In this document: in pieces, positions 388 to 5,033 of the stretch
How positions within the stretch are numbered: the stretch's first letter is position 1
How the letters are laid out: every line of letters begins with the position of its first letter
Virus record (IMG/VR): IMGVR_UViG_2744054964_000003
DNA length: 6,990 nt
Direction: 5' to 3' (one strand)
Source of the DNA: a virus
Taxonomy: Duplodnaviria > Heunggongvirae > Uroviricota > Caudoviricetes
Made by a program: the position numbers and the translations under genes
The notes under the pieces: generated by a model
What the model saw: only the letters and a program-made list of their open reading frames with translations
Told to the model about the DNA's origin: nothing
Database searches by the model: none

Positions 388-1578
388 ATGAGTGACTATC
401 ATCACGGCGTGCAGGTGCTGGAGATTAACGACGGCACCCGCGTCATTTCCACCGTATCCACTGCCATTGTCGGCATGGTCTGCACGGCCAGCGATGCGGA
501 TGCGGAAACCTTCCCCCTCAATAAACCGGTGCTGATTACCAATGTGCAAAGCGCAATTGCAAAGGCCGGTAAAAAAGGCACGCTGGCGGCGTCGTTGCAG
601 GCTATCGCTGACCAGTCAAAACCGGTCACCGTTGTTGTGCGTGTGGAAGACGGCAGCGGCGACGACGAGGAAACGAAACTCGCGCAGACCGTTTCCAATA
701 TCATCGGCACCACCGACGAAAACGGTCAGTACACCGGACTGAAAGCCCTGCTGGCGGCGGAGTCGGTAACCGGTGTTAAACCGCGTATTCTCGGCGTGCC
801 GGGACTGGACACCAAAGAGGTGGCAGTTGCACTGGCATCAGTTTGTCAGAAGCTGCGTGCTTTCGGGTATATCAGCGCATGGGGCTGTAAAACCATTTCC
901 GAGGTGAAAGCCTATCGCCAGAATTTCAGCCAGCGTGAGCTGATGGTCATCTGGCCGGATTTCCTCGCATGGGATACGGTCACCAGTACCACCGCCACCG
1001 CGTATGCTACCGCCCGTGCGCTGGGTCTGCGTGCCAAAATCGACCAGGAGCAGGGCTGGCATAAAACGCTGTCCAACGTTGGGGTGAACGGTGTTACCGG
1101 CATCAGCGCATCTGTATTCTGGGATTTGCAGGAGTCCGGCACCGATGCTGACCTGCTTAACGAGTCAGGCGTCACAACACTGATTCGCCGTGACGGTTTC
1201 CGCTTCTGGGGTAACCGTACCTGCTCTGATGACCCGCTGTTCCTCTTTGAAAACTACACCCGCACCGCACAGGTACTGGCCGACACGATGGCTGAGGCAC
1301 ACATGTGGGCGGTGGACAAGCCCATCACCGCAACGCTGATTCGTGACATCGTTGACGGCATCAATGCCAAATTCCGTGAGCTGAAAACAAACGGCTATAT
1401 CGTGGATGCGACCTGCTGGTTTAGCGAAGAATCCAACGATGCGGAAACCCTCAAGGCCGGAAAACTGTATATCGACTACGACTATACACCGGTGCCCCCT
1501 CTCGAAAACCTGACCCTGCGCCAGCGCATTACCGATAAATACCTGGCAAATCTGGTCACCTCGGTTAACAGCAATTAA
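388..1578 (+). CDS. FI: Contractile tail sheath protein (P2 gpFI)
   Basis: 396-aa ORF with ATG start and GGAG Shine-Dalgarno at 376-379. Length and N-terminus (MSDYHHGVQVLEINDGTR...) match P2 FI as I recall it; position is immediately upstream of the tube gene. Confidence 0.93.
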   Translation: MSDYHHGVQVLEINDGTRVISTVSTAIVGMVCTASDADAETFPLNKPVLITNVQSAIAKAGKKGTLAASLQAIADQSKPVTVVVRVEDGSGDDEETKLAQTVSNIIGTTDENGQYTGLKALLAAESVTGVKPRILGVPGLDTKEVAVALASVCQKLRAFGYISAWGCKTISEVKAYRQNFSQRELMVIWPDFLAWDTVTSTTATAYATARALGLRAKIDQEQGWHKTLSNVGVNGVTGISASVFWDLQESGTDADLLNESGVTTLIRRDGFRFWGNRTCSDDPLFLFENYTRTAQVLADTMAEAHMWAVDKPITATLIRDIVDGINAKFRELKTNGYIVDATCWFSEESNDAETLKAGKLYIDYDYTPVPPLENLTLRQRITDKYLANLVTSVNSN

Positions 1579-1590
1579 GGAGCCTGACCG

Positions 1591-2109
1591 ATGGCAATGC
1601 CGCGCAAACTCAAGTTAATGAACGTCTTTCTGAACGGCTACAGCTATCAGGGCGTTGCAAAGTCCGTCACGCTGCCAAAACTGACCCGTAAGCTCGAAAA
1701 CTATCGCGGTGCGGGGATGAACGGCAGCGCACCGGTAGACCTCGGCCTTGATGACGATGCGCTGTCAATGGAGTGGTCGCTCGGGGGCTTCCCGGATTCG
1801 GTTATCTGGGAGCTTTACGCCGCAACCGGCGTGGATGCCGTGCCGATTCGTTTTGCAGGCTCTTACCAGCGCGACGATACCGGCGAAACGGTGGCCGTCG
1901 AAGTGGTCATGCGTGGACGTCAGAAAGAAATCGACACCGGCGAGGGTAAACAGGGAGAAGACACCGAGTCGAAAATCTCCGTGGTCTGCACCTATTTCCG
2001 GCTGACGATGGACGGTAAGGAGCTGGTCGAAATCGACACCATCAACATGATTGAGAAGGTGAACGGCGTCGACCGTCTGGAGCAACACCGCCGCAATATC
2101 GGCCTGTGA
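1591..2109 (+). CDS. FII: Tail tube protein (P2 gpFII)
   Basis: 172-aa ORF. AAGGAG Shine-Dalgarno at 1577-1582 overlaps the FI stop codon and sits 8 nt before the ATG. Size and position match the myophage tube protein downstream of the sheath gene. Confidence 0.93.
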   Translation: MAMPRKLKLMNVFLNGYSYQGVAKSVTLPKLTRKLENYRGAGMNGSAPVDLGLDDDALSMEWSLGGFPDSVIWELYAATGVDAVPIRFAGSYQRDDTGETVAVEVVMRGRQKEIDTGEGKQGEDTESKISVVCTYFRLTMDGKELVEIDTINMIEKVNGVDRLEQHRRNIGL

Positions 2110-2165: not shown

Positions 2166-2441
2166 ATGAACAAAGAAAATGTGATTACCCTGGACAATCC
2201 GGTCAAGCGTGGTGAGCAGGTTATCGAACAGGTCACGCTGATGAAACCCAGTGCGGGGACGCTGCGCGGTGTCAGTCTGGCAGCGGTCGCGAACTCCGAA
2301 GTCGATGCACTGATTAAGGTGCTGCCGCGCATGACGGCACCGATGCTGACCGAGCAGGAAGTCGCCGCGCTGGAACTGCCTGACCTTGTGGCGCTGGCCG
2401 GTAAGGTGGTCGGTTTTTTGTCGCCGAACTCGGTGCAGTGA
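2166..2441 (+). CDS. E: Tail assembly chaperone (P2 gpE), zero-frame product
   Basis: 91-aa ORF with ATG start, located between the tube and tape measure genes; contains a T_TTT_TTG slippery heptamer near its 3' end. Confidence 0.9.
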   Translation: MNKENVITLDNPVKRGEQVIEQVTLMKPSAGTLRGVSLAAVANSEVDALIKVLPRMTAPMLTEQEVAALELPDLVALAGKVVGFLSPNSVQ

Positions 2442-2593
2442 CGTTTCCAAAAAATCTCTCGGTCGATGACCTGATGGCGGATGTGGCAGTGATATTTCAC
2501 TGGCCGCCATCAGAACTGTATCCCATGAGCCTGACCGAACTCATCACATGGCGCGAAAAGGCGCTCCGGCGAAGCGGAAACACGAATGAGTAA
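2166..2593 (+). CDS. E+E': Tail assembly chaperone frameshift fusion (P2 gpE+E'); -1 frameshift at 2414-2420
   Basis: 85 codons in the E frame plus 57 codons in the -1 frame (VAELGAVTFPKNLSVDDLMADVAVIFHWPPSELYPMSLTELITWREKALRRSGNTNE) give 142 aa, the size of P2 E+E' as I recall it. The arrangement parallels lambda G/GT. Its stop overlaps the T start. Confidence 0.8.
2414..2420 (+). other. Programmed -1 ribosomal frameshift slippery heptamer T_TTT_TTG
   Basis: Heptamer is in X_XXY_YYZ register relative to the E frame (codons GGT 2412-2414, TTT 2415-2417, TTG 2418-2420). The -1 frame is open from 2420 to TAA at 2591-2593. Confidence 0.8.
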
Positions 2594-5033
2594 CAATGTA
2601 AAATTACAGGTATTGCTCAGGGCTGTTGACCAGGCATCCCGCCCGTTTAAATCCATCCGCACAGCGAGTAAGTCGCTGTCGGGGGATATCCGGGAAACAC
2701 AAAAATCACTGCGCGAGCTGAACGGTCACGCATCCCGTATTGAGGGATTCCGCAAGACCAGTGCACAGCTCGCTGTGACTGGTCATGCACTTGAAAAGGC
2801 TCGGCAGGAAGCCGAAGCCCTTGCCACACAGTTTAAAAATACCGAACGTCCGACCCGTGCTCAGGCGAAAGTGCTGGAATCCGCAAAGCGTGCGGCGGAG
2901 GACTTACAGGCGAAATATAACCGCCTGACGGATTCCGTTAAACGCCAGCAGCGGGAACTGGCCACTGTGGGAATTAATACCCGCAACCTTGCACATGATG
3001 AGCAGGGACTGAAAAACCGTATCAGTGAAACCACCGCACAACTTAACCGTCAGCGTGACGCGCTGGCGCGTGTCAGTGCGCAACAGGCAAAACTTAACGC
3101 AGTAAAACAGCGTTATCAGGCCGGAAAGGAACTGGCCGGAAATATGGCCTCGGTGGGCGCTGCCGGTGTGGGGATTGCGGCGGCGGGAACGATGGCCGGA
3201 GTTAAGTTGCTGATGCCCGGTTATGAGTTTGCGCAGAAAAACTCAGAATTGCAGGCCGTGCTCGGAGTGGCAAAAGACTCCGCCGAAATGGCCGCACTCC
3301 GCAGGCAGGCGCGCCAGCTCGGTGACAATACTGCCGCCTCGGCGGATGATGCAGCCGGTGCACAGATTATCATTGCGAAAGCCGGTGGAGATGCTGCGGC
3401 TATTCAGGCGGCAACGCCGGTCACGCTGAATATGGCACTGGCGAATCAGCGGTCGATGGAAGAAAACGCGCAACTGTTGCTGGGGACTAAGGCATCCTTT
3501 CAACTGTCAAATGATGATGTCAGTCATGTGGGCGACGTGTTGTCGGCAACGATGAATAAGTCGGCGGCTGATTTTCAGGGACTCAGTGATGCACTGACTT
3601 ATCTCGGCCCGGTTGCGAAGACGGCAGGTGTAAGTCTTGAGCAGGCAGCAGCCATGACAGGTGTGCTGCATGACAATAACATCAGGGGGTCAATGGCGGG
3701 TACGGGTAGCAGTGCCGTTGTCACCCGATTACAGGCTCCGACAGGGAAAGCATGGGATGCACTCAAAGAGCTTGGCGTTAAAACCTCGGACAAAAAGGGA
3801 AATATGCGCCCGTTGTTCACCATTCTGAAAGAGATTCAGGCCAGCTTTGATAAACACAAGCTGGGAACGTCTCAGAAGGGGGAATACCTTAAAACCATTT
3901 TTGGTGAGGAAGCCCTGAAATCAGCGAACGTTTTACTGGCAGCGGCAGCAAGCGGAAAACTGGATACGCTGACCGCCACGCTGAAAGCCTCGGACGGTAA
4001 AACGGAAGAGCTGGTTAAAATCATGCAGGATAACCTCGGCGGTGACTTTAAGGAGTTTCAGTCCGCTTATGAGGCGGTGGGGACTGACCTGTTTGACCAG
4101 CAGGAAGGCGCACTGCGTAAGCTCACACAGACGGCCACAAAGTATGTGTTAAAACTCGACGGCTGGATCCAGAAAAACAAATCACTGGCGTCAACCATCG
4201 GCCTCATTGTCGGTGGCGCGCTGGCGCTGATTGGCATCATCGGTGCAATTGGTCTTGTAGCCTGGCCGGTTATCACCGGCATCAATGCCATTATCGCGGC
4301 AGCAGGCGCAATGGGGGCAATCTTCACGACGGTTGGCAGTGCTGTTATGACGGCCATCGGGGCGATTAGCTGGCCGGTTGTGGCCGTGGTGGCCGCCATT
4401 GTCGCCGGGGCGTTGCTTATCCGTAAATACTGGGAGCCTGTCAGCGCATTCTTTGGCGGTGTGGTGGAAGGGCTGAAAGCGGCATTTGCGCCGGTGGGGG
4501 AACTGTTCACGCCACTTAAACCGGTGTTTGACTGGCTGGGTGAAAAGTTACAGGCCGCGTGGCAGTGGTTTAAAAACCTGATTGCCCCGGTCAAAGCCAC
4601 CCAGGACACCCTGAACCGTTGCCGTGACACGGGCGTCATGTTCGGGCAGGCACTGGCTGACGCGCTGATGCTGCCGCTTAATGCGTTCAACAAACTGCGC
4701 AGTGGTATTGACTGGGTACTGGAAAAACTCGGTGTTATCAACAAAGAGTCAGACACACTTGACCAGACCGCCGCCAGAACTCAAGCCGCCACGTATGGCA
4801 GCGGTGGTTATATTCCGGCGACCAGCTCTTATGCAGGTTATCAGGCTTATCAGCCGGTCACGGCACCGGCTGGCCGCTCTTATGTAGACCAGAGTAAAAA
4901 CGAATATCACATCAGCCTGACGGGTGGTACTGCGCCGGGGACACAGCTCGACCGCCAGTTACAGGATGCGCTCGAAAAATACGAGCGGGATAAACGTGCG
5001 CGCGCCCGTGCCAGCATGATGCATGACGGTTAA
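2586..5033 (+). CDS. T: Tail tape measure protein (P2 gpT)
   Basis: 815-aa ORF directly after the chaperone pair. N-terminal region is rich in Q/R/A/L/E (coiled-coil-like); a long Gly/Ala/Ile-rich hydrophobic segment lies at about 4185-4423; both are typical of tape measure proteins. Confidence 0.93.
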   Translation: MSNNVKLQVLLRAVDQASRPFKSIRTASKSLSGDIRETQKSLRELNGHASRIEGFRKTSAQLAVTGHALEKARQEAEALATQFKNTERPTRAQAKVLESAKRAAEDLQAKYNRLTDSVKRQQRELATVGINTRNLAHDEQGLKNRISETTAQLNRQRDALARVSAQQAKLNAVKQRYQAGKELAGNMASVGAAGVGIAAAGTMAGVKLLMPGYEFAQKNSELQAVLGVAKDSAEMAALRRQARQLGDNTAASADDAAGAQIIIAKAGGDAAAIQAATPVTLNMALANQRSMEENAQLLLGTKASFQLSNDDVSHVGDVLSATMNKSAADFQGLSDALTYLGPVAKTAGVSLEQAAAMTGVLHDNNIRGSMAGTGSSAVVTRLQAPTGKAWDALKELGVKTSDKKGNMRPLFTILKEIQASFDKHKLGTSQKGEYLKTIFGEEALKSANVLLAAAASGKLDTLTATLKASDGKTEELVKIMQDNLGGDFKEFQSAYEAVGTDLFDQQEGALRKLTQTATKYVLKLDGWIQKNKSLASTIGLIVGGALALIGIIGAIGLVAWPVITGINAIIAAAGAMGAIFTTVGSAVMTAIGAISWPVVAVVAAIVAGALLIRKYWEPVSAFFGGVVEGLKAAFAPVGELFTPLKPVFDWLGEKLQAAWQWFKNLIAPVKATQDTLNRCRDTGVMFGQALADALMLPLNAFNKLRSGIDWVLEKLGVINKESDTLDQTAARTQAATYGSGGYIPATSSYAGYQAYQPVTAPAGRSYVDQSKNEYHISLTGGTAPGTQLDRQLQDALEKYERDKRARARASMMHDG

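Follow-up and report, generated by a model that had tools for sequence, protein, structure and literature searches.

The tail genes E and E' of phage P2 are joined in translation by a -1 frameshift whose efficiency is said, in the abstract of the original study, to be about 10%. That the fusion is made by frameshifting and that E' is essential are reported both in the literature and in the GenBank annotation. The P2 record (AF063097) places E at 19430-19705 and a joined coding sequence, E+E', at 19430-19857, with the note 'shares amino terminus with gpE; -1 frameshift; essential tail protein'; it also carries a feature 'site of -1 translational frameshift' at 19685 and begins T at 19850, within the end of E'. 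The Wphi GenBank record annotates the E/E+E' -1 frameshift in the same way. The experimental demonstration in P2 is credited to Christie et al. 2002 (J Bacteriol 184:6522). According to PMC3091744, the shift takes place at TTTTTTG and yields a 91-aa E and a 142-aa E+E', and that paper describes P2 and its relatives as having no downstream hairpin. PMC3931495 describes an E' that overlaps both E, by 37 nt, and the T start, and that is without its own ribosome binding site, and P2-type frameshifting is put at 2- to 3-fold more efficient than lambda's, which is roughly 1 in 30, in PMC5009743.

The G/GT pair of lambda (Levin, Hendrix and Casjens 1993; Xu, Hendrix and Duda 2004, 2013, 2014) occupies the same slot, from the tail tube or major tail gene to the tape measure gene. 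There, too, ribosomes shift by -1 shortly before the first ORF ends and make a longer product in a fixed minority ratio, and the stop/start overlap with the tape measure gene is the same 8 nt, ATGGCTGA in lambda and ATGAGTAA in the DNA described here. Lambda gpG/gpT have no detectable sequence similarity to the E/E' of this DNA, in which Pfam finds only Phage_TAC_7 and Phage_P2_GpE, and PMC3931495 reports no amino acid similarity between the P2 and lambda chaperones. By analogy, the pair described here appears to work like lambda G/GT, but it is not a member of that family at the sequence level.

The late tail operon and the E/E' slip site

The window analyzed, by which we mean the whole stretch of 6,990 nucleotides, contains six large ORFs on the plus strand, followed by the start of a zinc-finger regulator. 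The order of the ORFs, their Pfam domains and the megablast matches identify it, by homology, as the FI-FII-E-E'-T-U-D-ogr late tail operon of a P2-like phage or prophage. The 25 listed matches, out of 165 megablast phage records, were P2-like phages (Peduovirus) with 94.7-97.6% identity over 95-100% of the window, and the overall identity of about 95-97% to P2-group phages indicates a different isolate or prophage. The context of tube, E, E' and tape measure is the same as in the P2 type, with Phage_tube and PhageMin_Tail flanking Phage_TAC_7 and Phage_P2_GpE, and the Pfam scan also assigned Phage_P2_GpU within the window. No relative was detected by sequence among solved structures. The coding features and the slip site are as follows.

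388-1578, plus strand: tail sheath ORF (from the ORF list)
1591-2109, plus strand: FII, tail tube, the upstream neighbour of E (Pfam Phage_tube, E = 2.3e-60; annotated FII in P2 and Wphi)
2166-2441, plus strand: gene E, the zero-frame tail assembly chaperone of 91 aa (Pfam Phage_TAC_7 at aa 7-85, E = 1.5e-12)
2414-2420, plus strand: slippery heptamer T_TTT_TTG, predicted -1 shift site (register verified; the P2 frameshift site is at the equivalent position)
2420-2593, plus strand: E', the -1 frame extension of 57 codons and TAA (base 2420 read twice)
2586-5033, plus strand: gene T, tape measure, 815 aa (Pfam PhageMin_Tail, E = 1.8e-44; start ATG overlapping the end of E')
plus strand: two further ORFs of 159 and 387 aa (from the ORF list)

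The product of gene E matches PHROG 103 (tail), and its counterpart is annotated gpE in P2 and Wphi. Positions 1-387 of the window lie upstream of FI, and there the phage alignments start variously at 168, 296, 302 or 362; in the P2 record the Z/fun gene and the pF promoter are found just upstream of FI. These match start points suggest a variable slot upstream of FI in P2-like phages.

The preliminary description of this DNA had placed a T_TTT_TTG heptamer in register six codons before the E stop, and both its position at 2414-2420 and its register were confirmed. The zero frame at the heptamer reads GGT TTT TTG, which is the X_XXY_YYZ register, and beyond it the E frame continues for six sense codons (S P N S V Q) to the TGA at 2439-2441. 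TAA codons at 2402-2404 and 2591-2593 bound the open stretch of the -1 frame (2405-2590), which overlaps E by 37 nt. The earlier counts of 57 codons past the heptamer in this frame and of 142 aa for the fusion also held, as did the location of the T start inside the last E' codons, its ATG at 2586-2588 falling within ATGAGTAA (2586-2593).

Heptamers of the form XXXYYYZ occur in register four times in the window's genes, compared with 7.5 +/- 2.9 under codon shuffling, and since such heptamers are not enriched in the window, the heptamer by itself is an insufficient argument for frameshifting. A -1 frame open for at least 57 codons is found at only 2.6% of the codon positions of the same genes. 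The -1 frame encodes a Phage_P2_GpE domain (fusion aa 104-139, Pfam E = 1.2e-21), and E' matches PHROGs 1756 and 6416. In sequence terms, it is this recognised domain in the -1 frame, together with the conserved arrangement, that is decisive for the reality of the site.

Across 2380-2600 the window differs from P2 at one base in 221, a G to A change at 2449 that is synonymous in E'. The gene order, the register of the heptamer, the 91-aa E and the 142-aa E+E' are all the same as in P2 (Christie, Temple, Bartlett and Goodwin 2002; AF063097), and the 37-nt overlap of E and E' and the T start inside ATGAGTAA are likewise shared. The window also agrees with the description in PMC3931495, having the 37-nt overlap, the overlap with T, and, as the sole in-frame start, a GTG at 2438 with no SD nearby. 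We conclude that the site is very probably (with a probability of about 0.95) the known E/E+E' programmed -1 ribosomal frameshift of P2-like phage. The earlier reading of this site as a programmed -1 frameshift making an E+E' tail chaperone fusion is thus in agreement with the annotation of P2 (AF063097) and Wphi and with later papers; the E/E+E' frameshift, including the overlap with T, is already published and is not new here.

The G to A change at 2449 creates a second heptamer, A_AAA_AAT (2449-2455), in the register of E' and within a run of six A, where P2 has CCGAAAAAT. It is a potential minor secondary slip site in E' and is probably inconsequential.

Conservation of the slip site among relatives

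A tblastn search with the fusion protein recovered 418 phage records, nearly all of them as two pieces in two frames, at identities down to about 29%. Among 17 loci from many Peduoviridae genera, a slip site in register near the end of E was present in every one, the heptamer being T_TTT_TTG in 13, T_TTT_TTT in two, T_TTT_TTC in one and G_GGA_AAG in one, a Mannheimia phage. The scan was extended to enterobacterial prophages, for which genome contigs were searched with a 6-sequence alignment, giving 78 loci from distinct Enterobacterales species. The slip site was in register in 77 of the 78 (68 with T6G, 7 with T6A and 2 with T6C), and one had its two frames fused by a deletion. The codons that make up the site were also constrained in these enterobacterial loci: the Gly codon at the heptamer was GGT in 74 of 74, compared with 30% elsewhere, and the Phe codon was TTT in 76 of 76. 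In a set of 67 unique non-enteric loci there were 60 with T6G, 3 with T7, 2 with T6A and 2 with T6C, while 3 other loci were without an in-register slip site. Taken together, about 160 diverged relatives carry the heptamer in register. Conservation of the -1 frame protein begins at the heptamer (FLxAE, alignment A2), and the match to PHROG 1756 spans the junction, covering fusion residues 82-142.

Several individual loci depart from this pattern. In Mannheimia phage 1127AP1 (L095, locus 782-788) the lambda-type G_GGA_AAG lies at the homologous position of the T run of the others, which shows a slip site replaced with its function kept. At a locus from Candidatus Symbiopectobacterium (L100), E and E' have come to share one frame through a deletion directly upstream of the T run; the fusion is either hard-wired or a sign of prophage decay. 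Two further loci (L200 and L201) have an upstream G run that is one G shorter, which takes the heptamer out of register and reflects either a pseudogene or a sequencing error. In phage records H40, H50, H56, H57, H64 and others, E' either appears as a small 'GpE family' gene of its own or is missing.

Sequences on either side of the slip site

Three further elements lie close to the heptamer or within E'.

2404-2411, plus strand: SD-like element AGGUGGUC, a candidate 5' stimulator ending 2 nt upstream of the heptamer (role suggested by conservation)
2423-2434, plus strand: small 4-bp hairpin, GCCG/CGGU, with a 4-nt loop, beginning 2 nt past the heptamer (fold prediction)
2471-2513, plus strand: strong hairpin in E', with a 10-bp outer stem and a 6-bp inner stem, -24.8 kcal/mol

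No strong hairpin had been noticed downstream of the heptamer in the preliminary description, apart from a short CCGA/TCGG pairing at 2424-2433. The latter would enclose a loop of 2 nt and cannot form; the feasible fold is the GCCG/CGGU hairpin at 2423-2434. The absence of a strong hairpin holds at stimulatory distance, and at 5-9 nt 3' of the heptamer, where the dnaX type has its stem-loop or pseudoknot, the window fold contained neither, but it does not hold further off, where the hairpin at 2471-2513 forms 50 nt downstream of the slip site. Neither fold was retained as a stimulator. The small hairpin is too close and too weak, and probably does not act in this way, since with a 2-nt spacer it would lie inside the mRNA channel of the ribosome while the heptamer is being decoded. 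The hairpin at 2471-2513, in turn, lies at too great a downstream distance for a classical stimulator.

The outer stem of this second hairpin is formed by CUGAUGGCGG and CCGCCAUCAG. Over 67 enterobacterial sequences, 93.3% of its pair cells are paired, and double-sided changes occur at only one pair, in three sequences; where third positions vary, they are for the most part in loops or the change is compatible. The hairpin is not kept in register among distant relatives. It overlaps LMADxAVIFHWPPSE, the most conserved motif of the protein. Because covariation is thin and the register is lost in distant relatives, we make no functional claim for it. The hairpin would be crossed only by frameshifted ribosomes, so that roles in mRNA stability or anti-polarity are conceivable, and one may speculate that it contributes to mRNA stability or prevents polarity in the sparsely translated 145 nt from the E stop to the T start.

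Upstream of the heptamer, AGGUGGUC can form eight pairs with the 3' tail of 16S rRNA, in a duplex of -13.8 kcal/mol that is stronger than all of the start-site SDs of the operon except that of U. AGGTG, at -10 to -6 from the heptamer, is nearly invariant across the 77 unique loci of the enterobacterial set. The entropies of the two third-codon positions that it includes are 0.10 and 0.51 bits, compared with 1.0-1.9 at neighbouring third positions, and the first base of its leading codon varies, the residue being Lys, Gln or Glu. That leading codon ends in G in 75 of 76 enterobacterial loci, as against 53% elsewhere (Fisher 2e-19, phylogeny ignored), and the next codon is GTG in 70 of 75, as against 36% elsewhere (Fisher 2e-24, again with phylogeny ignored). 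The mean anti-SD pairing at the element in these loci is -11.2 kcal/mol, and the regional background is -2.2 +/- 1.9. Dual coding is ruled out as a source of this constraint, since the -1 frame opens only at 2405 and is untranslated before the heptamer.

A different element occupies the equivalent region in the non-enteric branch, also described as the beta-proteobacterial relatives. Here GGGGG or GGAGG is found at -17 to -13, with a 12-nt spacer, in place of the AGGUG with a 5-nt spacer of the enterics. Its mean pairing in the non-enteric loci is -9.6, compared with a background of -1.95 +/- 1.7, and it is built from the Gly codons GGG and GGA, used in 59 of 67 cases and 21% elsewhere (Fisher 4e-30, with phylogeny left out of account). 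Among the 17 diverse loci, the SD-like element is absent in Smp131 and in Zymomonas, two relatives of the T7 type.

A sequence complementary to the anti-SD lies likewise 5' of an X_XXY_YYZ heptamer in E. coli dnaX and in the IS911/IS3 type (Larsen et al. 1994). Stimulation of a -1 shift by an SD is reported at 9-14 nt in PMC5009743. The spacer in the window and in the enterics is 5 nt measured from AGGUG; with the partner base of 16S C1536 as the reference it is 8 nt, compared with 10 in dnaX. By either measure it is shorter than 9-14 nt, whereas the 12-nt spacer of the non-enteric P2-like element falls within this range, as in the dnaX/IS911 type. The dnaX type further differs in having a 3' stem-loop at stimulatory distance, which the window does not have, and in the window the stimulatory role is inferred from conservation.

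The heptamer itself is a weak one. The supplement of Sharma et al. 2014 gives, for UUUUUUG in E. coli reporters, 0.118% frameshifting for the heptamer alone, 0.247% with the IS911 stimulators and 0.765% with the IS3 pseudoknot. Since UUUUUUG is a poor shifter in these reporters, sequence context must contribute. On the evidence of its conservation, the SD-like element likely stimulates frameshifting at P2-type sites, and it may explain how a weak heptamer reaches the reported efficiency, although the short enteric spacer and the absence of the element in Smp131 and Zymomonas speak against such a role. Lambda shows the opposite combination, with an efficient G_GGA_AAG, no upstream SD-like element (-2.5 kcal/mol) and a strong SD on H (-10.8), whereas the P2 type combines a weak U_UUU_UUG and a strong upstream SD-like element with a T that is almost without an SD.

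Slippage mechanism and the start of T

Tandem slippage of the ribosome on the heptamer would give a junction peptide ...VVGFLVAELGAV... in the fusion. A variant of this mechanism, in which the peptidyl-tRNA-Phe on UUU slips alone while the A site stands empty at the rare UUG, would still be programmed -1 ribosomal frameshifting at the same site; the new A-site codon would be UUU, read by tRNA-Phe, which would place Phe at residue 85. The Leu codons UUG and UUA are both rare and depend on minor tRNAs, and the seventh base of the heptamer is G or A in 75 of the 77 enterobacterial loci, which fits a pause at a rare codon, as does the poor tandem slippage on UUUUUUG in reporters. It is a point against this variant that the reporter yielding only 0.12% contained this rare codon too. 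The conserved first T of the heptamer (GGT in 74 of 74) does not discriminate between the two forms of slippage, since a P-site slip also re-pairs with that T. We regard slippage in the P site alone as improbable, though it is the best placed of the alternatives.

Slippage could also take place during transcription, with the polymerase adding a U on the run of six T; the product would then read ...GFFVAEL... and not ...GFLVAEL..., and P-site-only slippage and transcriptional slippage alike predict the junction ...VVGFFVAELGAV... The run is homopolymeric, it extends to seven T in Smp131, Zymomonas and L235, and an inserted U would give a protein of the same 142-aa length. However, bacterial RNA polymerase slips efficiently on runs of about 8-9 or more, so that six T is too short for a level of several percent, and in 77 of 77 enterobacterial loci the run is exactly six and never longer. 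The G_GGA_AAG of the Mannheimia phage cannot support polymerase slippage, and the conserved upstream element complementary to the anti-SD points to a mechanism at the level of the ribosome. The Mannheimia heptamer and the invariant six-T run therefore argue for ribosomal rather than polymerase slippage, and the transcriptional explanation is very unlikely and was rejected.

Least likely of all, to the point of being dismissed here, is an independent start of E' at GTG 2438 with the upstream AGGUGG as its ribosome binding site and no frameshift. In its favour, a GTG-initiated ORF of 51 aa does exist at 2438-2593, and relatives that were annotated automatically are often given a small 'GpE family' gene of their own. 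Against it, the 26 nt from the end of the SD-like element to GTG 2438 are far too many, conservation of the -1 frame protein begins at the heptamer with the PHROG 1756 match crossing the junction, and an in-register heptamer would not need to be conserved. In PMC3091744 and PMC3931495, too, E' has no RBS and its frame is translated by prolonging E.

Programmed -1 ribosomal frameshifting at 2414-2420 thus stands as the preferred reading, with no evidence speaking against the shift itself, and the mechanism we propose is as follows. Ribosomes translating E (2166-2441) would reach GGU UUU UUG, and most would read the six remaining codons and terminate to give the 91-aa gpE. A minority would slip by -1 on U_UUU_UUG (2414-2420) and read 57 codons to the UAA at 2591-2593, giving the 142-aa gpE+E', with the conserved GpE domain as its C-terminal part. 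If the analogy to lambda gpG/gpGT holds, gpE and gpE+E' would be chaperones of gpT, the tape measure protein encoded immediately downstream, and neither would be expected in the virion. The SD-like sequence 5' of the heptamer may pair with the 16S tail of the elongating ribosome and so raise slippage on a weak heptamer. Finally, T, with almost no SD and an AUG 5 nt before the E' stop, may be initiated at least partly by ribosomes that are ending E'.

The start of T is the weakest in the operon by its pairing with the anti-SD. Its best pairing (searched in 2566-2588) is -3.7 kcal/mol and lies 12 nt from the ATG, a poor spacing, compared with -6.1 for FI, -5.1 for E, -9.5 for D, -9.7 for FII and -17.8 for U, and ribosomes that stay in the zero frame stop 145 nt upstream of it. 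T starts in relatives are mostly weak too. In the enterobacterial loci the E' stop and the T start overlap by 8 nt in 57 of 75 and by 11 nt in 16 of 75, for a total of 73 of 75. The geometry in the non-enteric loci is more varied, with values of -2 (18 loci), -15 (14), +4 (12), +8 (8) and 0/+1 (7), and gaps of -38 and -172 nt are found in Ahp2 and Smp131. As judged from these alignments, the proximity of E' and T is conserved, and overlap is common but not universal. In the MFE fold, AUGAGU (2586-2591) pairs with ACUCAU (2540-2545); sequestration of the T start by this pairing was considered and rejected as evidence of coupling, as it is weak and is broken in many relatives.

Coupling of T initiation to the frameshifted ribosomes, which had been suggested from the overlap, is plausible given a T almost without an SD and the conserved tight geometry of stop and start, although we would rate its chances at slightly below even. 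Three points speak against its being obligatory: the geometry is variable, lambda H has a strong SD and the T start is not consistently sequestered. More tentative still, and on balance doubtful, is the joint proposal of a three-part device, in which a weak heptamer would be raised by the SD-like element to a level of several percent and T would be translated largely by ribosomes that finish E'. Neither the SD stimulator nor the coupling of T was found in the accessible literature, a body of work that did not include Christie et al. 2002.

For the relatives of this phage, these results point to a systematic annotation gap, in that their E+E' should be a joined, frameshifted CDS, and the same applies to the element in the window. 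The side observations could be of modest, specialist value, with the SD-like element offering a testable explanation for the difference between 0.1-0.8% in reporters and several percent in P2. Coupling of T to E', if true, would be a simple way to fix the ratio of tape measure protein to frameshifted chaperone. If the three-part device is true, the clades would have retained the SD-like element or evolved it anew at differing distances, and the output of tape measure protein would be tied to that of E+E'.
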